Source of the DNA: Eledone cirrhosa
Lineage: Eukaryota
Direction: 5' to 3'
Assembly: GCA_964016885.1 (NCBI GenBank)
Contig: OZ024741.1
Coordinates: 346,394,001-346,458,000, forward strand
Length of the DNA stretch: 64,000 bases
Shown: piece after piece, positions 5,470 through 46,447 of the stretch
Layout of the letters: each line of letters starts with the position of its first letter
How positions within the stretch are numbered: position 1 is the first letter of the stretch
The notes under the pieces: generated by a model
Seen by the model: only the letters and a program-made list of their open reading frames with translations
The model's database searches: none
Told to the model about the DNA's origin: nothing
Program-made: the position numbers and the translations under genes

Positions 5470-6258
5470 GCTGCTACTACACATTCTATCTCCAGTTTAT
5501 GTTGGCTGGCTATTGATGTCAGAGAGAGAGAGAGAGAGTTGCTGCTGCCCTTAGGCTACCTTCGTACCGTGCTGTGGGCTCATCCGGGATTCTGGACAGT
5601 AGGCTGTCGAGATGTTTCTTGAAAACCTCAGTTCTCTTCTCACTTACAACTGCGGGGATCGGACGTGTGTCTCGACTACTCAGGCTTGAACTTTATTGAG
5701 TGGTTTTGGATGTCCTACCTATAGTGGCTCACACATTGCTCGGTTTATTGTATTTTTCGTTATTTTGTTACTGTTTTCTCTTTTCTTCCCCTTTGCTTTC
5801 CTTCCCCCTTCCTTCGTTTCGCCAATAACTTATTCAGTCATTGACGCCTTAGGGTGAGGTATCTTGTCTTTAAAACGTAGAAATATCCGAGATCCACAGT
5901 AGACAACTGATGAGGAACGCCCCCCCCGTTCTTGCTTTCTTCGTATTCCCACTGCATTTTAAGTTACCTTAAAAGCAACTACACAGCCATTTCTATTCTC
6001 CATTTATATATATATATATATATATATTTCTATTTATTTGCCACTAGGGCACAAGAGAAAGGGACAAGTACACAGGGGGGAGTTTACATAAATGCGAGTA
6101 AAGAAAAAGGCATAACAATGAGAATAACATAATAATAAAAAGTCCTCAAAAGGGAGGGGGCGTGTTGGCGATTGCACATATCTCCGAAAAGTGTGCGACT
6201 CTTTTCGCGGGGGAAGCCCAGAGAGGAAGCGCTCCCCCTTTCCTCTTCACTTCTTCAC

Positions 6259-8674
6259 CTACAGAACAATGTAGAGAGAAGGCCCATTTACACGAGCCAT
6301 TCTCGCTTCTTTCACCCATCTTTCATAAAACTGTCTGGGGCCAAGCACTTCTCTCTCCATCCTGATCCTTCTTCCGAAGTGGTATCGGAAGAAGTAAACC
6401 AGGTGTTGGCCGGAGAGAAAGTCACCCGACCTCAGACCTTTCGGACGCGTCCACCACACAACCTCTTTCATCATGGCTATTACGCACAGAAAGACCGCCT
6501 CTGCTTCATTTCTGAAGGGAGGAGGCGGCTTGATGTTCACCACAGACTCGGCGGTCAATCGAATCGGCGCCACACGCGACAGCAGTCGTTCGACGTAGCC
6601 CCACAGATCGGGAACGCCCGGGCAGTGTACCAGTGCATGCGCAACGGTTTCCTCGTCGCGCACGCATCTGGGACAGATCTTTTTCGTGGGATCCCTGCCC
6701 GGGCGCCCGTGTCTGTAGAGCTTTTCTCGAACGGGTAGAGCCCCCCGGTAACACTGCCAGGCTAGGGACCTCTGGAAGTTGTCCATGGGTCCCGGGCCGA
6801 AAGTTCTACCGAACAGGCTGGCCAGTTCGTCCTCCTCCAAGCCTAGCGACTCTCCAAGGGTGTCGTCGCCCCTGCTAGCCACCAGCCCTCTATAGAATGT
6901 CGAGGTGGATTCTCCACTGATAGTCGGGTCCGCTTGCCAGAGAGCCGTGAGCACCTGGGCACACTCGGTGTGCCAGTTGCCCAGTTTTCTCGGTCTTTGC
7001 TTCACCCAGGATTGAAGCTCGGTGAGCGAGACGAGCTGTGGAAAGGCTCGCCTCACAAACGTGGCCCACACCGGCTGTAAAAAAATCTGTAACTCTGCAT
7101 TCAGCAGAGTTAGGGGCCTAAAGTTACTTAAGTCGTCCCCCTTGTTCTCGTCCTTCCTCACTAGCGTGACCACGCCCTTGGTCACAGAACAGGGAATTCT
7201 CCCGTTCTGTTGCCAGTTGCAATAGACAGCCACGAGGAGTTCGGAGAACAAGACCGGCATAGCTAAATAAAGTTCGTATGGAAGACCATCGAGACCCGGA
7301 GATTTGCGTCTGCTGCATTGGCTGAGCGCTTCCCCGATTTCAGTGACTGTGATTGGCCTTTCGCAGCACTCCGCTTCGCCGCTCGAAAGACGCGGTAGAC
7401 CGTCGAGGTATGGACCGAAGTCCACATCCCCGTCCGGCCCCCCGCCCCCTCCGAACAGTCGAGCAAAGTGCCTTTGAAAGGCCTCGCACATCCGCTCAGG
7501 TTCAAGGATCACCCGTCCATCCTGGTCTCGCAAAGACCGAATGGTGGATTTAATCCCACTCTTGGCTTCTGTCGCGCGGGCCCAGCTAACAGCTTTGGTC
7601 CCCTCGTTTCCTAAAGCACGTATTTTACTTCGGACAACGCAGCCTTCGTGCTTCGCGTCAAAGAACTGGCTCAACGCCGTTCTCGCCGCTAACACTCTGG
7701 CCACGTCTCCGCTCCTAATCGCCTCTTCTAGTTTATCTGTTAACTCCCTTTCCTTCCTATTTCTATTCGCCGCTAGTTCCTTACTGTAACCTATCGAACT
7801 TACTCTAATCTCTCTCTTTAGAGATACCCACCACCTGCTGTTGACGATCGCTCCCGTCAACCGCATCTTAACTAAGCTACTAATCCGGTTCCTGTAATCT
7901 TTCTTTGCCGGCAAGGACAAGTTCATCTTCCAGTAACCGGGACCCTGTCTATGCGTTCTATCAAGGTTGACCACGCAGGTAACTAATTTGTGATCTGAAT
8001 AGCCAACCATGATCAATTCTGTACAACTAACTACGTCCCTATCCTTACTCCTAACCCAAAACCTATCTAGGTACGATCTAGATTGACCACTGCGGTTTGC
8101 CGAGGTCCAGGTTGGCGCAGTTGGACAATCTAGTCGAAATCTATCGACCAGGTCGAATCTATCGAGTAACCCCTTGAGGCTGCTACACCCCCCTCTATCG
8201 GGACATGCCCCTGCATAGTCCCAACGCGCATCTAGGATTCCATTCCAGTCCCCCACTAAAAGCAGGGAACGCGACGTTCCTAGAAAAGTCTCCCGACGCT
8301 GGAAGAAGTCGGCTCTTTCAGCCCCGAAGGGGGCATAAAGACCGACCAGTCTGAAAGCCCCGCCTTCACTGCCTCCGACGTCCAGCACCAGTAATCGACC
8401 CCCCGGGTCCGAGTGAACAATCTGTACATCGAGAGCCAGACGTTTATCCAGCATTACGGCACCCTCCCCCCCAACCATCTCCGGGTTGACAGAGAGATGC
8501 GTGCATCTCAAAGTCATCGAAGGCGGGAGCCAGCTGTCGCACGCTGCTGATCCGACTCTCGCAAACAACCATCACATCTATACTTCTTGACTTGAGGTCA
8601 CTTAGAAGCTTTGCTTGCTTCCAAGCTGAGCCCAGGCCACGCGCATTCAAACAGCCAACTCTCAATTGATCTAT
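6259..8674 (-). pseudogene. Tx1 ORF2 (APE endonuclease, linker, C-terminal CxxC..H..C; RT domain missing)
   Basis: RVGCLNARGL, GLYAP, LVGDWN, SYLDRF, YSDH, SPGLDGLP, NFRPLTLLN, then a jump straight to LQIF..CPRC..ETVAHALVHC. Start appears mutated to ATA and there are 5' frameshifts. Confidence 0.9.
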
Positions 8675-10531
8675 TTTGGTGTTGAAAGTGAAGAAAGAAA
8701 AGCACCTACCTCTCCGGGTTGTGTAATTTCCATGGCGTCAGGTGTGTTGGGTGGAGGGATGTTTTGTGGTGGTGTGGGGGTACCCGAGTGTGGTGGGGTT
8801 GGGGTATTTGGAGTTGTGTCAGGGAGAGGGGAGGTTACGGGGAAATCTTTCAAGAGGACGCGATTTAACGGTTTTAAACAGGGGGGGGGGGCTCACGCCC
8901 TGTCTAAATTGTTCTTTTAAGGAGCGATAAAGGTCCAGAGGGACCTTTATCATTTTTAAATGGGTGAAGTTCTCTGTTGAGATAAAGTTTGGCCCTTCAG
9001 TCTGTACCAAAGGGCTATTGTTTATTAATTTAAACAGTTTTTTGTTTTCTTTATTTATATATGTGTATTGCAAAGTCTTTTTTTGTGATGCTGTCAATGT
9101 TTCGGAGAGGGGAGGCGCAGATTTATTTTTGTTTGTCGAGGGTGGGGTGTTTTTGATTGGAGTTGGTGTTTGTGTGTGGGTTATTTGTGGTGTGCTGGGT
9201 GTGTGCTTTCTTTTTTTTCTTTTAACTTGTCTGAAGGCTTCTCCTCCTTCTTCTTCAGAAGTTGGGGGAAACTCTTCAGCGCTAGGTGGGAGGGACGTGG
9301 TGTCTGGTTGTTTTTTTTTTGCGGGATGGGTAGATTTGTTGCTGTTTTTTTATTATTTGTTTGAATGCGTTTTGTGGTGGTGGTGATGATGTTTGTGTCG
9401 TGCTTGTGGTCGGTGATGGTGATGGTGGTGGTGATGTTTGTGTTGTGGTTGGTGATGGTGGTGGTGATTTTTGTGTCGTGCTTGTGTTTGGTGGTGGTGG
9501 TGGTGATGTTTGTGTTGTGCTTGTGGTTGGTGGTGTCTGTATTTTGTTTGCTGTGTGTGGTATTAGTGTATTTTTGGAGGTGGGTGGTGTTGGTGTACTG
9601 TTTGTGGTGGGTGTGGGCAATAGTCCTTTTTGGGGGATACGTTTCGGGCAGTTAGCCTTAACGTGTCCCCTTTCCGTGCATAAATAGCATGCTGGTCTTC
9701 TCCCCTCTACAATTATATATATTGGGGTGAGGTCATCCAGCCAGATGCGATCCGGGATTTGTGCTATTCTTTCGGGCCTCATTTGGACTAGTAGGTCGAG
9801 GCCCATTCCCAGGAACGCATCTCCAGATGCCTTCCCCATTGACAGCACTGTGTCCTCGCCCATGTCTATGAAGCCAGCAATAGCCCACCAGAAGTCCATT
9901 GTGGGCAGCATTGTTTGTATTTTGACTCTCTGTGTTCTTCTACCCATGTAGGAGGGATAGAAGCTGTATGTTGTTGATGAGAGTGGGCTTAGGGAAAGCT
10001 TCTGGGCTGTTTCCTTGTCTTTTGTTAAGACCGAAATCCTGCCATAGAGTCGGTCCTTTCGTATGAAGAGAATATTCTTCATATAGTCTTTTAGGACCAA
10101 CTCTATCTCCATTTGGCTGGGCTGTGCTGGCTTTCTCGTTTGGTTTAGGATTGTTCTGAAGAGAACTGTGCTCTCTGTTCTCGCTTTCTTGAATTCTGGG
10201 GGGGGGGGGGGGGGGGGTTAATGGAAAACATTCCGTTCTCCCCCAAGACTATGTGTTTTTTTGCTTCTGCCAGTTTTTCTCTGGCGGCAGTTAAGTCTAT
10301 TGGTGTATATATTATGGATTGTTTTGTTTTCTGGGCGAAAGTTGCCTTGTTGTTATTTGTATTCTTATTTTCTGTTTGTCTGTTTTCCGTTTGCTCATTT
10401 TCCGTAACATTTGTTTTTTCATTTTCCTTGTTTGTTTCGTTGTCTAGTTTTGTTGTATCTATTTTTTGTTCTTCAGACTTGGGGGGCGTGGCAGAGCTAA
10501 TGGCAGACATGTCTGCCATCTTTTCCGCCAT
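8671..10531 (-). pseudogene. Tx1 ORF1 (gag-like, CCHC zinc knuckle, Pro/Thr-rich tail); frameshifted
   Basis: ORFs 10145-10531, 9282-10112 (EGRRPACYLCTERGHVKANC), 8819-9097 and 8671-8853. Homologous to ORF1 of copy B. Confidence 0.85.
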
Positions 10532-27223: not shown

Positions 27224-27264
27224 GTTGGTGGTGAAGAGTTAAAGTGGAGAAAAAGAAAAGACAC

Positions 27265-29061
27265 CTACCTCTCCGTCTCCTGGGGACCAGGCTGCACAAT
27301 TTCCATGGGGGTGTTGGAGGGGTTCTTTGGTGGGGGGGTGGTTTGGGGTGTGGTGGGGACATCAGTGCGTGGTGGGGTTGGGGTGTTTGGTTGGGTGGGG
27401 GTCTCTGGGGTGGTGGTTTTGAAACATTTCAAAAAAACGCGGTTGGAGGGTCTAGTACAGGGATTCCCCACGTCCTCGGGAAAGTTTTGTTCGAGCATTG
27501 CGTAAGTGTCCCTTGGGACTCTAATCATTTTCAAATGCGGTTTATTCGCCGCGTTGGTGAACATTTTCCCTTCGGTTTCCACCGAAGGGTCTTTTTCTAT
27601 TGTTTGTACAAGTGTTTTATTGTTTGTGTTGATGTATGTATAATGTTTTTGTTGTGTTGTGTTTGTTTTAGTTTGTTGTTCTTGTGTGTGTTTGCGTTTT
27701 GTAGTATGTGTTATATTTTCGGGAGGGGTGGTTTTTGTTCGTGATGTTTGTTCTGTTTGTGCCGGTGGTTGTGTATTTGTTGTATTTTTGTTAATGTGGT
27801 GCCTTCTTTTCTTTCTTTTTACTGGTTGAAAGGGCTCTCCCTCGTCGTCACTGGGTGACGTTGATAATGGGTCCTCGTCCGTGTTGTTGGTGAGGGGTAT
27901 ATTTTGTGGTTTTGTTGTGGTTGCGGGTGCTTTTGTATTTGTTTTAAGTGGGGAGGGGTTGAGTGGGACAGTGTCTTGTGTTGTTACTTTTTCGTACTGT
28001 TGTGGTTGTTGTTGTTTGTGTAGTGGTGGTTTTGTTGTTGTGTTCGGGGTTGGCAGAAGAGCCTTTTTTTTGACTCGTTAATTGAGGACAGGCAGCTCTC
28101 AGGTGACCTCTGCTTAAGCAGTGGAAACATGACGGCCGCCTACCCTCAACTGAAATGTTTATATAGGTTAGCCCATCCAGAGGCACGCGTTGTGGGATTT
28201 TAGCTATTCGTTCTGGGCTCATTTGAACCAGAACTTCTACGCTGGTCCTACTAAATACACCTCTGGAGTACTTTCATACTGAGATTATCTGTCCTCATCA
28301 AAATCAATGAATCCACATAGTATCCACCAAATATTTACATTTGGTGTGATACTCATAATTTTTATTTTTTGTGTCCTTTTCCCCCTGTAACAGGTGAAAC
28401 GGGGGGGGGGTACACAATGGGTGATACAGCGTATTTTTGTGCCGTTGGCTGGTCATTCATTAGCACCGAAATGCTACCAAACAGTTTTCCTCTTTGGATG
28501 AAGGTTATGTCCTTCATTGCATCTTTTAGAACCAGCTCATTTCATTTAGTGATAATTGAGCTGGTTTTCTAGTTGCGTTTGATATTGTCCTGAAAGCCAC
28601 AGTTTTCAGGACAGTATCTCTACGTAATACTTGGGGAGAATTGATGCTATAAAAGCACCGTTTTGTCCAAAAGTTACATATTGTTTTGCATCTTGGAGTA
28701 GCAGTTTTGCGTTAGTGATGTCAATTGGAGTGTATAGTTCCTTTTTTTTTACAGTTTGTGCCAAGGATGTTTTGGTGTTGTTGTCTTTCTTGTTGTTGTT
28801 ATTGTTGTCACTGTTGTTGATGTTGTTCATATTTTCCTTGGTGTTGGTGTTGTTATTGTTGCAGTTGTTGGTTGTGGTGTTATTGTCATTGTTCTTGTTG
28901 TTGGTGCTGGTATTATTTCCCTGGTTTGGTTCCGTGGTTGCAATATTGACAACGTTTTTCGATAAGGCGAGGGGGGAAGGATGTAAGCCTACCTTCCTTC
29001 TACCACTTTTCTTAGTGGGCGTGACATTCACTACAGCGTGAAAGGTTGAAATGGCATCCAT
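27265..29061 (-). pseudogene. Tx1 ORF1 with CCHC knuckle; frameshifted
   Basis: YTPIDIT (copy A has YTPIDLT), EGRRPSCFHCLSRGHLRAAC, HLKMIRVP (copy A has HLKMIKVP). Confidence 0.85.
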
Positions 29062-34031: not shown

Positions 34032-37000
34032 GTTGCATTTATCTTGCTTTATGTTCATACGAGTTATCACCAAGTCACAACCAGTGACCTCAAGAGACAA
34101 CAAGGTCCGCCATGTTCAAGAAAGAACATACATATTCACACATGCATCTTTAGTGTTTAGACTTGTGATGTACTTATATTGACAGAATCTTCCTTAGTAT
34201 ATAGGCAGTTCCCATTAGTACTATCTTTTGTATTTCTCCTATACGCGGGTTTCCTGGGATTTGCGATAAGTAATCATTAGACCCCTTAGGTATCATTCCC
34301 AGAGCGCCTACAACCACTGGTATTGTTTTAGTTCTCAATTTCCACATTTTTCCAATTTCTATCTCCAGGTCCTTATACTTGCTCAATTTTTCAAATGTTT
34401 TTATAGATACATTCTTGTCTATTGGAACAGACATATCAATTAGCAGGCATATCCTCTTTTGAAAGTCCTTCAATATTATATCAGGTCTATTTGCATCTAT
34501 TTTTCGGTCTGTTTGGATGCTAAAGTTCCACAAGATTGAGATGTGATCTTTTTCAAGTATGGGAGGTGGTTGATGCTCCCACCAATTCTTTTGATGGGGC
34601 AGGTCAAAATGCTTACACAAAATCCAATGTATGTATTGTGCAGCTCTTTCATGCCTGTTTAGGTATTCGGTTGGAGCTATAGGACTGCACATTGAAATTA
34701 TATGGTCAATGGTCTCTGGTTGTTTTTTGCATACACGGCATAATGGGCTGCATCCATTTTTTATTATGTTGGCTTGGTAATTTGTTGTTGGCAGACATTG
34801 ATATTGTGCTGATATAATCAGTCCTTCAGTCTCTGATTTCAGTCCAGAGGATGCCAACCACTGATGAGTTAAAGTTTTGTCAACATCAGGAATGTTAGCT
34901 CGCTCTGGGTATTTTCCATACAGAGGCTTTTCTTGCCATTTCTTAGCCAGTTTCTGTAGCAGTTCTTTCTTTGCAGTTACTTTTACCTGCTTTGCTTTTT
35001 CTGTGTTTTCCATTTCAGCAGTAAATGGGACTTCTGAAATTTGTAGTCCATTACTGTATCTTTGTGCATCTTTTGTAATGGAATATGATCTTTTGATGCT
35101 TTCGTGTTTCAAAACGAGTTTGATCATCCAATCATGTGATTCCCTTAGATATGTAGATAATCCAATTGTTGCAGTTTTCAACGCAATGTCTAACTGGATT
35201 AACCCACGTCCTCCTTCTTTCCTAGGGAGATATATTCTATCTATATCTGCCTTAGGGTGATGCATTCTGTGCATGGTTAAGAATTTTCGAATTTTTGTAT
35301 CGAGCCTACGGATCTCTGTGCTTGACCAGTTGATGACATTGTAACTGTATGTTACTACTGGTATGGCAAGCGTTTTTATGGCATCGATCCTATTCCTTGC
35401 ATTCAATTCCGTTCTTAAGATTGCTCTTATTCTGCGGTAACATTCCTTCCTTATCCTTTCCCTCATTGTCGAGTGCTTGATTCCGTCTCCTTCACAAACA
35501 CCTAGATATTTATAAGTTTTTTCTTGATCAAGTTCTCTTATCACGTTCCCCCGATCAAGATTAATGTCTGAACTCTTCAGCAGCTTTCCTCTGGTGAACG
35601 TTGCTTTGGCGCATTTATCTAGTCCAAACTCCATTTTAATGTCATCACTGAACTGCTCCACAGTGGATAATAGCCCTTGCAATTGTTCATCATTTTTTGC
35701 AAATAGTTTCAGGTCATCCATGTAGAACAGGTGATTAATGGTTTTATCATAGACTTTATATCCATGTTTTGTTTCATTGAGCATTTTACTTAATGGTATA
35801 AGTGCGATGCAGAATAAAAGCGGTAATAAAGAGTCACCCTGAAAAATTCCACAATTAATATTAACTTCTCCAGCTTCCAGTGATTTTGTTTCACTATCCC
35901 AAAGGAATGTCGTTTTCCATGTCTTCATACTGAATGACAAAAACCTCCTGACAACGGGGGATATTTTGAAAATCTCTAAACATTTTTCAATCCAACTGTG
36001 TGGCAAACTATCGAATGCTTTTTTATAATCTATCCAAGCAATCGACAGATTTTTGTGTCTATTATGACAATCTTCCAGTATCATTTTGTTAACCAGAAGC
36101 TGATCCTTACAGCCATATGAGCCTCGTTTACAGCCTTTCTGCTCAATGGGAAATAGGTCATTTGTTATCAGGTGGTCATATGTGTATTCAGTTAGGACTG
36201 ATGTTAAAATTTTATACATTGTGGTCAAGCAAGTTATCGGTCTGTAATTTTTAGGATTGTTTGTCTCATCATTCTTCAGAAGCAGGAATGTAATGCCGTT
36301 AACTAGCCATGATGGTATCTTTTCTGGCTCCTTTACTATTTCATTGTAAAGTTGGGCTAACAGCTCATGAGACTCTGTGAAGGCATTTATCCAAAAGTTT
36401 TGTATTTTGTCTTTTCCTGGGGATTTCCATTTGCTGGTTTTTCTTAGAGCCAAGCGCAACTGTTCAACTGTTATATTTTCCCATATTTGTTCCTCAAGGT
36501 GAGCCTGTTTCTTTCATTTGTCTGTCTATCCATGGGCATGTATGTTATGAACTTTTTCTTCGGCCCAGATCTTTTCCCAGAATTCTTGCACTTCCTCCTT
36601 GGGTGGTATTGATTTAGCACTTATTGTTGACTTACCAATTTTTCTGTAGAAGTTTCTTTGGTTGTTTTTGAACATATTATTGTCCTTATAGAATCTAGAT
36701 CGTTTTTCAAAGCGCCTTATACGAGCAGCTTTGGCCGACACTTTTTGCTTGATTATTTCTATCAGCATGTCTATGTCACATGTTGATTTTATACTGTACT
36801 TTTTTTTCAATTTTCTAAGTTTAGTTTGTTTAACATGTTCACCTACTTTATAGTTTGTTAAAAGTTCTATGTCAGATCGGAGAAGGTTTATTTGGCGATT
36901 GATGTTTTCTTGCCAAGTAGATTTCTTGTGGGAATTCCTTTGTTTTTTCATCCTCACTCCACATAAGTGAGTGGTGACTTTAGCCGATGCATAATAGAGA

Positions 37001-37514
37001 TGATTTAAATCAGTAATGTTTAGTTTGTCTGTGATGATAATGTTTTTGAGAATTATGTTAGTCTTGTGTATTATCTTTTGGTTCTGTTTGGAGTTCTGGA
37101 TCTTAGGGAGGGTGTCTCGTTGCCCCATGTCAGATTCTTTCATTTTCATCCATTCGATCATAATTTCATCCTTCAAGTTGGCAAGTTCATTCTCATTCAT
37201 TTCTTTATCATTTACGATCTCATTATTTTCATTTGGAGTTTCATCCTGAGCATGCACTCCCTCCACTTTTTCGATCCTTTCTTTAATTTGTTCTGTTGCC
37301 ACTGATTCCGCCCCAACCCTGGGATTTAAGTGTTACAGTTTACCTCGTTTTCACTGACACATGTTTCATTTTCCCTTCGCTGACTTTGTACTAATAGCTT
37401 GATCTGATCAATTTCTATATCAGTTAGTAACTTTTTTCTTACAATATTTCTTCGTATATTGGCTAGTTTGTTACTGTCAATATAGCCTCTGTTTTCGGGA
37501 TGTTTCTTTTTCCA
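34030..37514 (-). mobile_element. R4/Dong-clade non-LTR retrotransposon, 5' truncated, with (TAA)n tail
   Basis: Single-ORF layout RT, CCHC, restriction-like endonuclease. The 3' end runs into (TAA)n, the known Dong target. Confidence 0.92.
34174..36459 (-). CDS. Dong/R4 polyprotein C-terminal part: RT, zinc knuckle, PD-(D/E)xK endonuclease (761 aa open)
   Basis: WKSPGKD, NYRPITCL, IDYKKAFDS, GIFQGDSL, YMDDLKLFAK, YKYLG, GGRGL, CRVC..ETIDHIISMC, RPDIILKD..LLIDMSVP..EKLSKY. Upstream parts (36526-37302, 37326-37514) are frameshifted. Confidence 0.93.
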   Translation of the reverse strand: MRLALRKTSKWKSPGKDKIQNFWINAFTESHELLAQLYNEIVKEPEKIPSWLVNGITFLLLKNDETNNPKNYRPITCLTTMYKILTSVLTEYTYDHLITNDLFPIEQKGCKRGSYGCKDQLLVNKMILEDCHNRHKNLSIAWIDYKKAFDSLPHSWIEKCLEIFKISPVVRRFLSFSMKTWKTTFLWDSETKSLEAGEVNINCGIFQGDSLLPLLFCIALIPLSKMLNETKHGYKVYDKTINHLFYMDDLKLFAKNDEQLQGLLSTVEQFSDDIKMEFGLDKCAKATFTRGKLLKSSDINLDRGNVIRELDQEKTYKYLGVCEGDGIKHSTMRERIRKECYRRIRAILRTELNARNRIDAIKTLAIPVVTYSYNVINWSSTEIRRLDTKIRKFLTMHRMHHPKADIDRIYLPRKEGGRGLIQLDIALKTATIGLSTYLRESHDWMIKLVLKHESIKRSYSITKDAQRYSNGLQISEVPFTAEMENTEKAKQVKVTAKKELLQKLAKKWQEKPLYGKYPERANIPDVDKTLTHQWLASSGLKSETEGLIISAQYQCLPTTNYQANIIKNGCSPLCRVCKKQPETIDHIISMCSPIAPTEYLNRHERAAQYIHWILCKHFDLPHQKNWWEHQPPPILEKDHISILWNFSIQTDRKIDANRPDIILKDFQKRICLLIDMSVPIDKNVSIKTFEKLSKYKDLEIEIGKMWKLRTKTIPVVVGALGMIPKGSNDYLSQIPGNPRIGEIQKIVLMGTAYILRKILSI

Positions 37515-40500
37515 GTTGAAAGCGAGGACATTCAAACAAAGGGGAGATTTTTGAAATGAGCACATTTTGCGTGCCAGAAGATTTGCTTCTGGTCCGAATG
37601 TCACTCAATTCTTTCAAAGAAATTCGAGAGAGCTTTCCTCAAGACGTGGGAAACCCGAATGTGAAACCCACATCAAGACTTTTAAAGGGGTTCCCAAAAG
37701 AAACCCCACCAACCATGGAGGTCGAACCACCCGACCTTCACAAGACCCGGGAGGTAAGTAAACCTTCCCTCTCTCTCTCTTAGCTTACCAATATGGCCAT
37801 ATTAAGAGTAGGAAGTTTAAATGTTCGCGGCCTGGGGTCACCCTGGAAGCAGGGTCGCCTGCTCAACGACCTCCGGTCGCTGGAAATGGATGTGATTGCC
37901 GTAAGCGAGACCAGAATTTCCGACACGCGTGCACTAGCCCCCATTTTCAACGACTATCAGATCTTCGCATCTGTTAGCAGGCCGGGAATGGGGGGTGGGG
38001 TGGCAGTGCTGTTTAGGAAAGGACTGGATCTCGAGGTAAGGTCGATCTTCCGGGACCCGGACGGTAAGTTGTTGGTCTTGGATGTGAGCAGTAGCGAAGG
38101 TGGTGCCTTTAGACTGCTGGCCGCCTACGCCCCTACAGGGGCCGGACGACCTGACTTCTTTAGGCGCCTGGAGACCTTTCTGGGTACGTCTCGCCCTTTA
38201 CTGTTAGCGGGGGACTGGAATGGCATCTTAGACGCACGCTTGGATTGTGTGGGAGTAGCCGATAGGAGCGGGGGTGCAAAAGCCTCAAGCACCTACTCAG
38301 CCAGTTCCAACTGTCTGACAGGTATCGACTAGATTTCCCCAATGTGCCAGTATGGACATGGACCAACCGAATGGGGTCATCTAGATCGTATATAGACAGA
38401 ATCTTCATTAGGAAAATAGATAGAAATAGTGTGGGCTGTCCACTTTTTAAAACGGTCGCCTATTCAGATCACAAATTTGTGATCTGTACGGTCGACCTAA
38501 ATAAAACGCGTAGGTTAGGACCGGGTTACTGGAAGCTGAACATGTCATTTCCGGCACGTAAGGCTTACAGGGACCGAGTCAATAAGTTAGTTAAGCAAAA
38601 GTTGACAGGGGGGATCATCAACAACAGATGGTGGGGAGCTCTCAAAAGAGAGATTAGAGTAACTTCGATAGAGTTCAGCAAAGAACTAGCGTTAGAGAAA
38701 AATAGAAAGGAGGGGAGCTGGTAGATAAGTTAGACGAGGCTTTTTGTAGTGGCATCGCAACTGACGTGCTAGCGGCGAGAATGGCATTAGACCATTTCTT
38801 CAATGCCAAACACGAAGGTTGCATTGTCAGAGCTAAGACGCGTGCGCTGAGAAACGAGGGAACTAAAGCTGTTCGATGGGCCCGCGTGGTGGAGGCGCAG
38901 CGTGGTAATAAAACCACAATTCGGTCTTTGGCGGACCGAGACGGACATGAGATGAGCGATTCCAAGCGGATGTGTGAGGCCTTTCGCTAGCACTTTGCTC
39001 GGTTGTTCGGGGAGAGTGGCGGGTCAGAGAAAGTAGCGGATTTCAGTCCCTACCTTGACGGCTTGCCGCGCATCTCGACGGTCGACGCTGAGCGCTGCGA
39101 AAGGCCGATTACTTCAGCCGAAATTCAGGACGCCCTTGTCGGCTGCATGAGGCGCAAGTCACCAGGCTTGGATGGCCTGCCCTACGAGCTTTACGTAAAT
39201 ATGCCAGACATGTTCTCCGAACTCCTTGAAGCACTCTACTGTAACTGGCAGCAGAATGGGAGTATTCCCAGTTCTGTGAGCTGGGGAGTGGTGACGCTGA
39301 TAAGGAAAGACGAGAACAAGAGGGATGCATTAGACAACTTCAGGCCCATAACTCTGCTCAACACAGAGTTTAAGATTTTGGCCAAGGTGTTAGCAAAGAG
39401 ATTGGCGCTTGTCGTCGAGGATTTGGTTGGGGAGGCGCAAACTTGCGCAATCCCAGCCAGGTCCATACACGACAATCTCCACCTCATGCGATACATCATA
39501 GAGAGGGTAGGGTGTAAACCTGGCTTCGGTGGGGCACTGATCAATTTAGATCAATCGAAAGCATTCGATAGGGTCGACCATCGGTATCTGGAGTTTGTCC
39601 TCAAAGCAGCTGGCTTCGGCCCTGTCTTTAGAAGCTGGATCGTTGCAATGCACAGCGGCACACGCTCGGTGGTCAAAGTTAATGGCCACCTCTCGGAACC
39701 ATTTCGGCTCTCCCAATCAGTCTGTCAAGGGTGCCCTCTCTCTTCCCTTCTGTACGTATTGACTCTCGAGCCTTTACTGCGGAAGCTGGAGCTGTTGCAG
39801 GGCATCCCGCTCAAACCGGGACGTGGAAAGGCGGTGTCGGCTTATACGGACGACATCACCGTGATGGTGTCGAACACCTCAGAAATCGAGGTGGTCGGCA
39901 CCTTATTGAAAGAATATGAAAGGTTGACAGGAGCTAAACTTAACCCGGAAAAGTCGGTGGGCTTGCAGCTCGGAACCTGGAGAGGCAAGCCCATGCCGTC
40001 CAACAGCGTCGTGGGGCGCTGGACGGACGGACTAGTAAAGTTGCTCGGGGTTTGGTTCGGACCAGACCTCCAGGTGGAAAAGAATTGGGACGAGGTAATG
40101 AGCAGAGTAGCCAGTCTCACCCAAAAATGGGCTGGGAGGCAGCTATCACTGAAAGGTCGCGCGGAGGTGGCGAATGCGTACATCGCGTCCGTCATCTATT
40201 ACCGCCTAACCGGCGTGCCTTGCCCCCGTCCGCGCCTCGTCAAGTTGGAACGGCTCCTCTTCAAATTCTTGTGGAGGGGACAAGTTCCGTTCGTGAGGCG
40301 GTCCATCTGCTGCCAGCACCCTCTACACGGAGGGCTGGGCATGCCGTGGCTAATGATGCGCAGACATGCGTTGAGGCTGCGAGATCTCCAGATATTCTGC
40401 CTCAATGGTGAACAGGTGTGGTCGCCGTTTATCAGACGGGCCTTTCCGCAGCTCATTTCTTTGACTGAGCTGCAGTCCTGGGTCAAGAAGAGACCGAGAC

Positions 40501-41487
40501 TGGGTGACTGGCACCTGGAATGTTACCAGGCACTCACTGCCCTCTACCAAGCGGGCAATGCGATCAGTGGAACTTCCACTCTCGAGTTTTATAGAGGATT
40601 AGTGGTGGGCAAGTGCGATGACGCACTCGGAGAAGCTTTGGGCCTCGACGAAGTCGAACTGACCAGTCTGTACCGGAGGACTTTTGAGCCGGGGACGATG
40701 GACAATTTCCAGAAATCCCTCGCTTGGCAGTGCTACCGGGGGGCACTGCCGGTTCGGGATAAACTCTACAGGCACAGAAGTGCTGTCAGACAGACCTGCC
40801 CAAGATGCGCACAGAACGACGAAACCGTTCTGCACGCACTTGTCCAATGTCCGTGCATTACTGACTTGTGGAGTTATGTCGAACAGCTACTGTCGCGTGT
40901 GGAACGAATCCAGTTATCGGCCGAGTCCATAGTGAAGATCGAGCCGCCACCTTCCTTAGGTCAGGAAGAGCAGGACATTTCCCTCTGTCTGGTGGCAGTT
41001 GCGAAAGAGATTATATGGTGGACCAGGTTGAAAGGACTAAAGACAGACACTTTTCTCTTCGGCCAATCCCTCATCAACTTCTTCAAGTTTCACCTGGAAA
41101 GGAGGGTGAGGGTGGAGAGAGAAGTGCTGCCCCCCAGTACATTTGCTAAAAGGTGGGTGAATGTGGCAAGAATGGCTCGTGTGAATGGGCCTACTCTGAC
41201 CATGCGCCTATAGGCTAGCTAACTTGAGGAGAGGGGTGCTCTCCTGGGTGCCCTAGAAGCGCAGGGTGGTTCAGGATTGGTGGGGTACCCGAATCACCCC
41301 AGGGTCGTCCACCCCCTATCGGGGAATTTATTTTGTTATATTTTGCATAGTTTATTTTATATTTTACATTTTCATTGTTAAATTAGTCTTGCCATTGTGC
41401 ACATTTACTCGACCTTATTGTAAATCCCCACTGTCCCTGTCTTTGTATTGTCCCCTACATGTCGGCCCTTGTGGCTAATAAATGAAA

Positions 41488-41489
<2 letters not shown>
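37515..41489 (+). mobile_element. L1/Tx1-clade LINE, copy C (only the last part of ORF1 remains), with (TTA)n tail
   Basis: ORF1 end FPQDVGNP (copy B has FPEDVGNP); ORF2; AATAAA at 41477. Confidence 0.93.
37793..41213 (+). pseudogene. Tx1 ORF2 (APE, RT, C-terminal Cys motif); two frameshifts and one stop, last 736 aa open
   Basis: RVGSLNVRGL, AAYAP, GDWN, YSDH, NFRPITLLN, LDQSKAFDRV, QGCPLS, AYTDD, CPRC..ETVLHALVQC. Confidence 0.94.

Positions 41490-41546
<57 letters not shown>
41490..41546. repeat. (TTA)n separating LINE copies C and D
   Basis: Directly visible. Confidence 0.98.
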
Positions 41547-41761
41547 GCCGACCTACGTAGTAAATCGTATCATCGTGAGCTCCGCAAACGTTTGTTATTT
41601 TCAGTTGTTTAAAATTGCCATTTATGGAAACCTTTTATTGTTAACTGTATATAAGTGCACATACATTGATTTCTGGAAAGGACACTCAAAAATATTGGGG
41701 CCTTGAGCCCAAAATTTAAACTTTTTATAATTATCAAACAAAAATTTTTCTTTGAAAAATC

Positions 41762-43580
41762 ATGGATGTCTCAGAGTCACTCCTTCCTCACACTCTAACA
41801 CTTCACACCGACACCACCATTGTAAATATTGCTACGTTTGCCAACACTGGAAATCTAAGCAGTAGCAAATTTTAAATTTGTCTCAGGCAGACGTTCATTT
41901 CCCGCCATTACCAATGACTGCAGGTGTTAAAGCCGCCACCACCACCACCACCGCGACAACCACCACCCCCACCACCACCACAGCGACAACAGAAACAAAA
42001 GAAAAAAATAAATTAACTCGTGATATCGAAATGAATTCAACCAAAATGAACTCTTCTACACCGAACACCACAACTGAAACTAAAATTAGCAATAGCAAAA
42101 ATAACGATAACAACAACAGCAACAATGAAATTAAGAAAACTACCCTGAGTTTTGCCAGAGTAGCAAAAACGTGCGAAGCGATCCAGGTAACTCAGGAGGA
42201 ATTAGAAGAAGCCAAAGGAATGGTAAAGAAAGATGGGTACAGGGTCAGCCTCACTCCCCCCACACCTAATAAAATGGAGCAACGTCGCCTATGCACCGTG
42301 TCTTATCGGACAATTAACATAAAGTCGCGCCGAGTGGAACGAGCATCCGAGTCCAAAATCCAAAAAGCTTTGGGACATGTGTGGGCAAAAAACCCCCACA
42401 TCAGACGTGGGCAGAAGTATGGAACCGTGGATGTGTTCTTTCAAACACCACAGGAGGATAGAGAACACTCCATGGCTCCATTAAGAAGTGACGACTTCAC
42501 ACTCGTCCCAAGCTATTGTGGCCAGAGACTTTTGAAGATCAGGGTGACCCACGTTCCACCGGCCATCGAAATTCCCTGGCTAATGGCTGCCGTCCTCGCC
42601 GGCATCGAAGCCAACACCAACATAATTGAAATAGCGAAAGAAAAGCAGGAGAACTGGTCCGGATCTGGGATGGAGCTCCTGATCCAAGCGGACCATAAAC
42701 GCATTGAGGAGATCCCAGAGGTAATATACCTCACTGACGGCAGCCACCTCTCTTACCCACCCCAGTGACTCAACCATCAACACCACCAGCAGCAGAAATG
42801 GCAGAAACAACTGTAGCAGCAACAACAGAAGCAACTGTAACAGCAACAACCCCAGCAACAATAGCAAAACCAACACCATCACCACCTAACGCGCCAGATC
42901 TAGCACCAGCGCCTACACCATCCACCACGCCACAACCAAAACCAAAGCCTGTGGAGGATTTTCCACTCCCCGGCTTATCACAACTGGAGACAGATTGTGA
43001 CGACGAGGAGTGGGAAACGGTATCAGGAAAAAATAAAAAATAAACCAAAAAAGAAAAAATTCTCTTCCAAAAACAAAATACAGAGGGAAACAAATAAATC
43101 ATCAAACAAAAAAGTTAGGACAGATATGCCACCATCCATACCAGCATCACCAACCCCATCACCACAAACACCAACACCATCACCATCATTAACCCCAACA
43201 CCACCATCACCAACACCAGAAAAGTCACCAAAAAGCGTAACAGAAACAACAAACGCAAACAAAACAAAACAACCAAAACGATACACACTACACAGCATTA
43301 AATTTGAACAACAACCAATTATTACACTACATGCAACACAACACCAGCATCACAGAAAAAAGACTACACAACAACCCAAAAGTTCACACCACCTCCACAC
43401 ATACAAATCACTCGCATCACACAGAAAACGTTCATGACACTAAAACAAAAATTCCCCAAAGTCATCGGAGACTTCCGACAAACACACTCCAGGAGGATTT
43501 CTAAGGACATCCTTCCGGAGGAGGCCACAAGCAGTGAAAAGGATGGACAAACCATCCTTCCTCTACGAGAAGTAAGGTAA
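41762..43580 (+). pseudogene. Tx1 ORF1, disrupted; zinc knuckle region apparently deleted near 42755
   Basis: IVNIAT (copy B has VVNIAT), SFARVAK, LVPSYCGQR (copy A has FYPSYMGRR), IEEIPEVIYLTD followed directly by the Pro/Thr tail. Confidence 0.78.
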
Positions 43581-43614
43581 GTGGTCTTTCACATCTTTTC
43601 CACTCCATTTCAAC

Positions 43615-46232
43615 ATGACCTCACTCAGAATAGGCAGCATAAATGCGCGTGGCTTGGGGTCGTCATGGAAGCAGGGCCACCTGCTCAACGACCTCAGGTC
43701 ACTAAACATAGATGTAGTGGCTATCAGCGAGACCAGAACTCCGAAGCACGGGCCTTCGCACCGATCTTCGGCGGCTACGATGTGTACGCATCTCCCAGCC
43801 GTCCGGGATCGGGGGGAGGAGTTGCTGTGCTTTTTCGGAGAGGTTTGGATCTCGCCATACGGGCCATCTTCCTGGACCCAAAAGGTAAGTTGGTGGTGCT
43901 AGACGTGACCAGCGGAGACGGGCAAGCTTTCAGGCTAGTGGCCGTCTATGCCCCGACAGGAGCAGGGCGGCCTGATTTCTTCCGGCGTCTGGAGACCTTT
44001 CTTGGAACGTCCCGCTCATTAGTGTTAGTGGGCGACTGGAACGGGATCTTAGATGCACGCTGGGACTGTGTAGGATTAGTGGATAGGGGAGGAGGTTGCA
44101 AGAGTCTCATCAACCTGCTCAGGCGTTTTGAACTGTCTGACAGGTACCGATTGGATTTCCCGAATGTGCGAATGTGGACTTGGACAAATCGCATAGGGTC
44201 ATCCCGAACATATCTAGATAGAGTATTTTGTAGGGAAATAGATTGGTCTAGCATAGGCTGTCCACAATTCAAGATAGTCAGCTACACGGACCACAAATTC
44301 GTGATCTGTGTGCTTGACTTAGATAGGCTTCATACTGGAAGCTAAACGCGTCCTTACCAGCGCGCAAGGCCTACAGAGACCGGATTAGCGAACTATTTAA
44401 GCGAGCGTTGACGGGGGCCATCGTCAACAACAAGTGGTGTGCTCTGAAAAGAGCAATTAGAATAGAGTCCATTAGGTTTAGTAAGGCTTTAGGAATAGAG
44501 AAAAATAGAGCAGAGGGAGAATTAGTTAGAAAATTAGACGAGGCGCTTAGCAAAGGCATCGCGACCGACGTACTTGCGGCGAAATTGGCCCTTGACCAAT
44601 TCTTCAATGCAAAGTCGAAGGCTGCGTTGTCAGAACTAGGGTGCGTGCTCTCAGACCCGAGGGGACGAAAGCCGTTCAATGGGCCCGAGTGGCGGAGGCG
44701 CGTCGTGGCAACAAAGCCACGATCCGGTCTTTGGTGGACTACGACGGGCGCATGCTACTCGATCCCGGGCAAATGTGTGAAGCTTTTCAGCGACACTTCG
44801 CTCAGTTGTTCGGGGGCAGCGGCGGGCCGGATCGAGGGATGGACTTTAGTGTCTACCTCGACGGACTGCCGCGGCTCTCGGTCACTGAGGCGGAGTGTTG
44901 CGAAAAGCCGATAACAGCCGCTGAAGTACGGGAGGTAATGACTAGCTGCACAAGAATCGCCTGGTTTGGATGGTCTGGCCTATGAACTTTACGTACATAT
45001 ACCAGACTTGTTCGGAGCCCTCTTGGCGGACGTCTATTGCAACTGGCAACAGAACGGGAGAATTCCTAGCTCTGTGAGCCGAGGAGCTGTGACGCTGCTG
45101 AGAAAGGATCCGAACAAGGGGGATAACATAGATAATTTTAGGCCCATAACATTGCTAAACACAGAGTTCAAGATTTTGGCCAAAGTGCTAGTAAAGAGGT
45201 TGGCGCTTGTCGTTGGTGGTCTGGTGGGAGAACGCAGACATGCGCCATTCCCGACAGATCCATCCACGAGAACATCCACCTCATGCGATACATCGTAGAG
45301 AGGGTAGCTAGGGAACCTGGCACGGGTGGGTCCTTGATCAATTTAGATCAATCGAAAGCTTTCGATAGGTTCGACCATCGTTACCTAGCGGCAGTCCTGA
45401 GGGCGGCTGGCTTTGGGCCCGTCTTCAGAGGCGGGATCGCTGCCATGCACAGCGACATCTGCTCTGTGGTGAGAGTGAACGGTCACCTTTCGGAACCGTT
45501 CAACATCATGCACTCGGTCCGCCAAGGATGTCCCCTCTCGTCCCTCTTGTACGTATTGACTCTCGAGCCATTACTGCACAAACTGGAGACGTTGAGAGGG
45601 GTCCCGCGAGAACTAGAATGCGGAAGATCCGTGTCAGCATATGTGGACGATGTCACCGTAGTGGTGTCGAACGCCAAACACATCGAGGCGATCGGCACTG
45701 CACTAAGAGAATACGAAGCGGTGACATGAGCAATGATCAACCAGGAAAAGTCAGTGGGCCTGCAGCTCGGCACCTGGAGAGGCAGGTCCATGGCGTCCAA
45801 CAGCGTCGTCGGGCATGTCCGAGATGCGCGCAGGGCGACGAAACCGTCCTGCACGCACTCGTCCAGTGTCCGAGCATTGCTGACTTGTGGGTTTATGTCG
45901 AACACATGCTGTCACGTGTAGAACGGATCCGTCTATCAGCTGAGTCCATCGTGAAGATTGCCCCGCCCTCTTCCTTTAGCTGGGAAGGGCAGGCAGTTTT
46001 TATCTGTCTGGTGGCCATGGCGAAAGAGATAGTATGGTGGACACGTTTGAAAGGGCTGAAGACGAGCACTTACTTCTTCGGTGATGCCCTGATTAACTTT
46101 TTCAAATTTCATTTAAAAAGGAAAATCAGGGTAGAGAGGGAAATGCTCTCTTCCCAGAATTTTGTTGAAAGATGGGTGAGAGAAGCAAGTATGGCCCGTT
46201 TGAATGGGCCTACTCTGAGTATGTGTCTGTAA
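43615..46232 (+). pseudogene. Tx1 ORF2 (APE plus RT), frameshifted, with about 0.8 kb deleted near 45814
   Basis: RIGSINARGL, AVYAP, GDWN, YTDH, LDQSKAFDR, VRQGCPLS, AYVDD. SNSVVG is joined directly to CPRCAQ. Confidence 0.92.
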
Positions 46233-46447
46233 ATTAAAAGTGGAAAACTGGGAGAGGGCACTTGCCCTGGTGGTCAGGGTCACTGTGGCCTTTTAATGGG
46301 CTTTCTCCACAAATGTCTCTCGGAAGTCTCCCCCCTATTGGGGAATTTTTCATTGTTATTTTTTAGTACATCCTCTGTTTTTTTACACGCAGAAATGCCC
46401 ATTTGTACCGTACTGTTTTGTCAACCCTTGTGGTTAATAAAGAAAGC

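Follow-up and report, generated by a model that had tools for sequence, protein, structure and literature searches.

The stretch of DNA considered in this report (the window) comprises 64,000 nucleotides (nt) of contig OZ024741.1 from Eledone cirrhosa, whose genome sequence totals 3.0 Gb. It contains four copies, designated A through D, of a retrotransposon that has no long terminal repeats (a non-LTR element) and carries a pair of open reading frames (ORF1, ORF2), wherein copies C and D reside on the + strand and copies A and B reside on the − strand. An earlier reading made from the letters alone (the sequence-only reading) had proposed that ORF2 in this family serves as an alternative intron, whose removal would leave a messenger RNA (mRNA) encoding only the ORF1 protein. 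The sites named in that proposal are present. Rechecking of the coordinates confirmed the 5′ splice-site (donor) motifs of all four copies, the TAG stop codon followed by G at the end of ORF2 in copies A, B, and C, the TAA at this position in copy D, and the branch-like sequence and poly(A) signal of copy C. The features are as follows.

37520..37753, + strand: 3′ portion of ORF1 that copy C retains (predicted exon 1), delimited by genomic copy alignments
37751..37759, + strand: copy C donor motif in phase 0 of ORF1, its GT at 37754
37760..37792, + strand: pyrimidine-rich spacer with the unspliced ORF1 stop codon TAG (37781-37783) and the ORF2 start context
37754..41213, + strand: predicted GT-AG intron of 3460 nt that holds all of ORF2
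37793..41213, + strand: broken ORF2 of copy C, ATG at 37793, with APE endonuclease, reverse transcriptase (RT), and zf-RVT domains (Pfam)
41196..41200, + strand: branch-like 5-mer near the AG, weak and variable between subfamilies
41211..41214, + strand: ORF2 stop codon TAG (41211-41213) plus G, the predicted 3′ splice site (acceptor); no other AG in the preceding 40 nt
41220..41222, + strand: TAA at which spliced ORF1 of copy C would stop, two codons past the junction
41477..41482, + strand: poly(A) signal close to the element's 3′ end, found in 17 of the 18 representatives described below; the 18th locus stops before it
41490..41546, + strand: ATT microsatellite between copy C and the directly adjoining copy D; clade II copies have this repeat on both sides
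8704..8712, − strand: donor motif of copy A, phase 0
6258..6261, − strand: ORF2 stop codon TAG plus G of copy A (predicted acceptor)
27263..27271, − strand: copy B donor motif in phase 2, enclosing the ORF1 stop codon
23830..23840, − strand: tandem AGs of copy B, one in the stop codon TAG and one in a CAG that precedes the ORF2 end by 7 nt; same layout in subfamily representative I_B160
43574..43582, + strand: copy D donor motif in phase 2, enclosing the ORF1 stop codon
46230..46232, + strand: ORF2 stop codon TAA of copy D, with no AG at the stop; fixed in the D subfamily

These elements are L1 superfamily non-LTR retrotransposons. Intact ORF2 encodes 1145 amino acids and carries PF03372 (APE endonuclease), PF00078 (RT), and PF13966 (zf-RVT), the same Pfam set that is present in copy C. 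Its nearest solved structure is LINE-1 ORF2p (E 1.9e-46; R2 reaches only 1e-18), ORF1 is a separate upstream frame of ~600 codons, 5′ truncation is variable, and there are no LTRs. A CX2CX4HX4C knuckle is visible in ORF1, with Pfam zf-CCHC scores below cut-off (E 0.007-0.07) and no match to the RNA recognition motif (RRM); Type I ORF1 proteins of the Tx1 clade are described as having RRM and/or zf-CCHC domains (PMC5203782). Full-length copies reside inside microsatellites with the same repeat on both flanks, judged by eye to be ATT for clade II and of TCTA type for clade I, although the flanks of subfamily I_122 are less clear. Membership in the Tx1 clade fits these sequence features, the label itself being taken from the sequence-only reading. 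Among Tx1 members, Kibi and Koshi are long interspersed elements (LINEs) that target microsatellites, as do many others of the clade (PMC4494074). The elements studied here share with Kibi and Koshi an APE-RT ORF2, an apparent CCHC-type motif in ORF1, and microsatellite insertion, but their targets are the ATT and TCTA-type repeats. Degenerate patterns for the start and end of ORF2 match the genome 10,378 and 18,090 times, respectively.

Copy C is ~98% identical to a young family. Because it begins at 37520, only 234 nt 5′ of its donor, and its ORF2 is split into three pieces, this 5′-truncated copy alone is a poor witness, and the claim made here concerns the family. Genomic copies of the C family align from 37520 onward, many share at least 1.6 kb further upstream with each other, and their 5′ ends range from 0.2 to >1.6 kb. 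The idea that family C has no ORF1 was therefore rejected; the truncation is confined to the window copy.

To represent the family, 18 natural copies were hand-picked from 50 complete elements and paired 5′/3′ rows, one per 5′/3′ subfamily type. These form two clades (I and II) that are ~0.47 apart at 4-fold sites. The phase of the donor was called from ORF1 motifs, or by reading for three copies from paired rows. Left out were duplicates of the same type, copies whose phase is disturbed by indels or chimerism (L137, L145, L147, L161, and the second elements of L199 and L200), L151 (a 5′ deletion with a 27-codon extension, which would count as a miss in the test described below), L153 (which would count as a match), 3′ types without a paired 5′ end, and the D-sister 3′ types L247, L254, and L282, whose 5′ phase is ambiguous.

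The donor GT is located at 37754 in copy C (+), 43577 in D (+), 8709 in A (−), and 27268 in B (−), which places it 39, 38, 35, and 45 nt, respectively, 5′ of the start of ORF2. An 8-mer donor pattern occurs seven times on both strands of the window, and four of these occurrences are the donor sites of copies A through D, which exceeds chance. All 18 representatives carry a canonical donor that conforms to the U2-type 5′ splice-site consensus, 25 to 47 nt 5′ of ORF2, and in nine of them it is the sole strong donor on the sense strand (4-5.7 kb examined). Positions −1, +1, +2, +5, and +6 are invariant in 18/18, with zero changes on the tree, and variation is confined to +3 and +4, where three canonical variants are found. 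The spacer beside them changed 4.0 times per site on average, and of 108 4-fold sites only 20 lack any variation. The invariance of the donor columns is partly built in because the columns were anchored on the motif; the independent figure comes from 30 genomic copies chosen solely by their ORF2 start, 28 of which carry the exact donor. The donor flank of copy C together with its GT has 217 exact genomic matches.

The motif might have no role in RNA processing and instead be a by-product of the last codons and stop of ORF1 (Arg-stop where the phase is 2, Gly-Lys-stop where it is 1) and of reinitiation signals for ORF2, kept by descent. In phase 2, the ORF1 stop codon occupies positions +2 to +4, with one donor variant for each of the three stop codons, and in phase 1 the T at +6 begins the stop. 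This explanation also agrees with the fact that neither a processed copy nor a junction read was found in the searches reported below. However, the donor occurs in all three phases of ORF1 (phase 0 in two representatives, phase 1 in six, and phase 2 in ten), and therefore coding does not explain it: Each phase offers a coding reason for some donor positions and for none of them all, and no one coding reading fits every phase. Positions +5 and +6 are non-coding yet invariant in the ten phase 2 representatives, and position +2 is a third codon position yet invariant in the six phase 1 representatives. The by-product explanation also leaves unexplained the phase-matched downstream stops described below, and we regard it as improbable. 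It is very likely, judging from this pattern, that the donor has a function at the nucleotide level.

Individual subfamilies have additional peculiarities at the boundary between the two reading frames. In family C, ORF2 continues the frame of ORF1 after a single TAG, such that readthrough of this codon would fuse the two ORFs. The same TAG closes a 30-nt GT-AG stretch (37754-37783) that is probably too short to be an intron. In subfamily A (window 8672-8674, − strand; L078, L082, L158, and L159), ATA occupies the site of the ORF2 ATG in 5/5 copies and overlaps the ORF1 stop codon; these elements may use a non-AUG start for ORF2 or may be non-autonomous. Types I_272 and I_274 (L270, L272, and L274-L278) have a strong acceptor-like site (a pyrimidine tract and CAG) ~10 nt before the ORF2 ATG, which could yield an ORF2-only mRNA from an upstream donor. 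At this same distance, some C-like types have TAG, and most subfamilies have no AG.

If the predicted splice is used, then the reading frame set by the phase of the donor should meet a stop codon soon after the acceptor. The sequence-only reading had noted such early ends in copies C (TRE-AS-stop), A (PGE-VKK-stop), and B (TER-stop), all of which are correct, as is the intron length of 3460 nt in C. The pattern extends to most but not all of the family: Among the 16 representative subfamilies whose ORF2 ends in TAG, 12 have a stop within three codons in the matched frame, compared to 6 of the 32 other frames, and four miss. Elsewhere in the 3′ untranslated region (3′ UTR), a stop within three codons occurs at 4-6% (permutation p 0.0011 for 12/16). 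Clade I subfamilies mostly combine phase 2 with an immediate stop, and therefore their spliced and unspliced ORF1 proteins (ORF1p) would be identical, while clade II combines phase 1 with stops that come from differing sequences. Later phase shifts (A, C, and I_274) land on an early stop in all three cases. The possibility that the downstream stops are backup stops for ORF2 was rejected, as most matched stops are out of the ORF2 frame.

Each of the four misses has a phase 2 donor and an AG at −7, from which a stop would follow after two codons. This second AG, 7 nt before the ORF2 end, had been overlooked in the sequence-only reading. Most subfamilies of clade I have it, with 8/10 representatives carrying AGs in tandem at −7 and 0, and it may be the acceptor actually used there. 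Its rescue of the misses is given little weight because it was seen after the fact and follows automatically from the frame. Under a fixed rule (the first CAG or TAG after −30), the matched stop is found in 13/16.

Based on the conserved donor and the AG at the end of ORF2, we consider it probable that the host spliceosome cuts the whole of ORF2 from part of the transcripts of these Tx1-like LINEs. The core of the original proposal gains real support from comparison, through the frame-independent donor in 18/18 representatives and the phase-matched stop in 12/16; the spliced joint itself was absent from the best 15 of 2,340 joints, as detailed below.

Several results weigh against this conclusion. 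First, a simulation on the tree was used because related subfamilies share sequence, with neutral change proceeding from ancestors that already had a matched stop and at rates that bracket the observed 4.2 changes per site. Twelve or more matches among 16 arise in 2-9% of such runs (0.02-0.09). For clade II TAG subfamilies, which are matched in 6/6 cases with TGA, TAA, and TAG stops at two positions, the simulated value is 0.008-0.019. The signal from phase-matched stops is real but moderate.

Second, conservation of the acceptor falls far short of that of the donor. The ORF2 stop codon is TAG in 16/18 representatives, 14 of which have G next, and among 30 genomic copies chosen by their ORF2 end there are 23 with TAG (22 followed by G), six with TAA, and one that is mutated. 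TAG conservation by itself is ordinary, with 0-1 changes also at 70 of 115 two-fold sites, and is weak evidence alone. The pyrimidine share before the acceptor is 0.56-0.68 in clade I and just 0.48-0.56 in clade II, compared to an ORF2 mean of 0.46; the acceptors are modest. In copy C, where a pyrimidine-rich tract had been described, the value is a weak 0.56 over −30 to −5. The branch-point motif is likewise weak and varies among subfamilies.

Third, D types make up 29 of the first 100 ORF2-start matches and retain the donor without an AG at the stop. An AG at +7 gives an extension of 65-67 codons, and the AG at −13 is a weak GAG. As one of the most frequent subfamilies, D makes the lack of an acceptor a more serious caveat than had been acknowledged; this subfamily has probably lost the splice or moved it. 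Fourth, in three copies of the II_134 type (L317, L318, and L321, two of which are near-duplicates 45 kb apart), a common double change at position 1516-1521 destroys the donor, from which it follows that a donor-less lineage could spread a little.

That D is very successful with a perfect donor and no acceptor at its stop, and that the donor outlasts the acceptor in general, would also be expected if the donor were mainly a site for the U1 small nuclear ribonucleoprotein (U1 snRNP). Bound U1 would protect or promote full-length RNA by blocking early polyadenylation, with no routine splicing to the ORF2 end, and the TAG and downstream stops would be inherited context. Such a second role of U1 is described for EVD, a copia element (PMC5580714), and a poly(A) hexamer is present inside ORF2 in 11/18 representatives, although ORF2 has none in the other seven. 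A role for U1 alone does not predict phase-matched stops past the ORF2 stop, and it leaves the position of the donor right at the ORF1 stop unexplained. We judge this to be the main rival to splicing, though an unlikely one. By analogy with EVD, where the U1 and splice roles coexist, both could operate here, which would account for D.

Direct traces of splicing were sought in four sequencing runs of unrecorded kind, with contigs placed on 37500-46445, and the 37753-41214 joint is absent among the best 15 of 2,340 joints, an absence without evidential weight. Runs X1-X3, whose contigs total ~1.4 billion letters per run, resemble DNA and took up the table of joints, while X4, with 88 million letters, may be RNA. 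In X4, contig depth is 182 in the ORF1-end bin, 995 and 954 in the 3′ UTR bins, and 39-96 in the first ORF2 bins, a profile unlike that of X1-X3. We do not count it as evidence because contig depth cannot rank parts of a gene. An X4 contig with a loose end at window position 41197 has an ORF2-like end in which CAG replaces the stop codon TAG, and it has no genomic match.

Genome searches likewise returned no processed (spliced) copies, with 0 versus 217 unspliced copies of C type, 0 versus 3,203 unspliced matches of phase 2 type, and none for the D, II_134, or II_206/214/215 types; the unspliced denominators were counted for C and the phase 2 group alone. A junction-type pattern gave seven genome matches (11 for the reversed control) and the junction for the −7 acceptor gave two, all of them unrelated. 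One locus, L059 (G000:C2:219.61 Mb), keeps nearly all of ORF1 and the 3′ UTR and is missing 37814-41099 of ORF2. This is a short-homology deletion away from the splice sites, with 60 nt and 113 nt of predicted intron left in place, and it is unique among 40 scored matches. The suggestion that splicing provides a route to ORF1-only non-autonomous elements consequently finds no support: No processed copy was found, and no genomic copies with a spliced or ORF2-less structure were found as a family. In this respect the elements differ from HAL1 (half-L1), ORF1-only genomic non-autonomous families derived from an L1-type element, with which they share a predicted ORF1-only product. Because spliced RNA makes no ORF2p, a preference of ORF2p for its own RNA (cis preference) predicts few processed copies, and their absence weakens the case for ORF1-only elements arising in this way more than it weakens the case for splicing.

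It is also conceivable that the donor is spliced to other acceptors, within ORF2, deeper in the 3′ UTR, or in flanking host sequence, which would produce ORF1 mRNAs with other ends or inactivated RNA, with the ORF2 stop being one acceptor of several. The tandem AGs of clade I and further AGs near the D stop are compatible with this, and human L1 uses several splice sites (PMC5860796). However, genome searches with the donor flank joined to other sequence (7, 8, 18, 6, and 1 variants) recovered just point mutants, indels, inversions, or chance matches, and the phase-matched stops point to the ORF2 end rather than to other acceptors. Such alternative joining therefore seems very unlikely as the principal use of the donor.

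If ORF2 is indeed removed by splicing, two RNAs would arise from one promoter. The unspliced RNA would make ORF1p and a little ORF2p and would be the template that is copied. The spliced mRNA (~2.2-2.4 kb) would make only ORF1p, either the same as the unspliced product or a few residues different, and should be stable and well translated because its ORF1 stop would lie in the last exon and be followed by a short 3′ UTR. In clade I subfamilies that use the −7 AG, the phase 2 donor would read into the stop codon of ORF2 itself. Given the cis preference of ORF2p for the RNA that made it, as known for human L1, copying would bypass the spliced RNA, and this would account for the missing processed copies. 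Overall, ORF1p would be in excess over ORF2p. The sites, their conservation, and the matched stops are observed; splicing and how much of it takes place, the ratio of the two proteins, and host control, if any, are inferred.

The closest precedent for this arrangement is found in Ty1/copia elements (Arabidopsis EVD and barley BARE1), wherein alternative splicing yields a short mRNA, shGAG, for the structural protein and the unspliced RNA encodes the enzymes. This splicing has been proposed to give an excess of structural over catalytic protein (PMC5580714). In both systems a stop follows soon after the junction, as predicted here for 12/16 subfamilies at the TAG acceptor. However, copia elements have LTRs and a single gag-pol ORF, and splicing of their intron takes out the protease region and goes together with early termination. 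In contrast, the non-LTR elements described here have two ORFs, a predicted intron that is the whole of ORF2, a normal 3′ end, and an ORF1 with its own stop codon. The LINE family is thus not a member of the copia shGAG system, but may work in an analogous manner.

Splice donors and acceptors are also known in the RNA of another L1 superfamily member. Human L1 produces SpIREs from splices within the 5′ UTR or between the 5′ UTR and ORF1, which retain ORF2. These reach the genome as copies and impair later mobility, and the cis preference of ORF2p decides which spliced RNAs get copied (PMC5860796). The sites reported here differ in that they flank ORF2, are conserved across deep subfamilies, and have left no genomic copies. 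Drosophila TART is a further non-LTR element with spliced transcripts, but its introns reside in antisense transcripts (PMC1636488), which is distinct from ORF2 removal from sense RNA.

Relatives of ORF1 are found in Argonauta hians, Octopus sinensis, and O. bimaculoides (source names), which suggests that the lineage is octopod-wide. One relative of 603 amino acids (P0146) is encoded on a contig of 2,209 nt, approximately the size of an ORF1-only mRNA. Its C-terminal residues, QGK, and those of the Argonauta relative P0144, EGKS, resemble the peptides at phase 1 donors here. Two protein searches with the ORF1 tail of copy C gave no match, a metagenome scan gave three short matches of 27 residues each, and Rfam gave no match. 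A 2026 repeat annotation of O. vulgaris lists L1-Tx1 among recently active LINEs, and its main text, so far as covered, is without words in “splic” (PMC13282606).

Some observations concern the surroundings and turnover of these elements. An unrelated RT element (34174-37332, − strand; RVT_1 E 4.6e-27) lies back to back with copy C, whose 5′ truncation point is just past it. A head-to-tail array of near-identical I_122 elements with ~5.9 kb spacing occupies G000:C1:4.22-4.26 Mb (L072-L075 and L202). Tandem runs of mixed subfamilies are common because copies insert into the repeats that flank one another. In addition, L139 and L140 have ORF2s that are 1% apart and different 3′ UTR starts, which suggests exchange of 3′ ends between subfamilies.

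A broader proposal, which we hold more tentatively and regard as possible rather than probable, is that in an octopod Tx1-like lineage the RT gene has become a dedicated, alternatively spliced intron, with its donor fused to the ORF1 stop and its acceptor fused to the ORF2 stop, such that intron retention decides between a mobile template and an mRNA for ORF1p. The splice logic is known from copia shGAG, and the LINE case is new so far as the literature search reached: Among titles and the starts of abstracts, with most subscription journals and Repbase Reports outside its scope, no description was found of whole-ORF2 removal from a LINE, nor any report of splicing in Tx1 elements. The test for phase-matched stops is applicable to any LINE library.

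The large excess of ORF1p over ORF2p in LINEs is usually ascribed to inefficient translation of ORF2 from one bicistronic RNA. If the proposal is true, then a family of >10,000 copies would have a second, RNA-level solution to ORF1p excess that is convergent with that of copia. The LINE would have a retrovirus-like switch between spliced and unspliced RNA that host splicing factors could adjust from tissue to tissue. Moreover, LINE expression in octopuses that is measured by ORF1 or 3′ reads may then mostly represent RNA that is not mobile.

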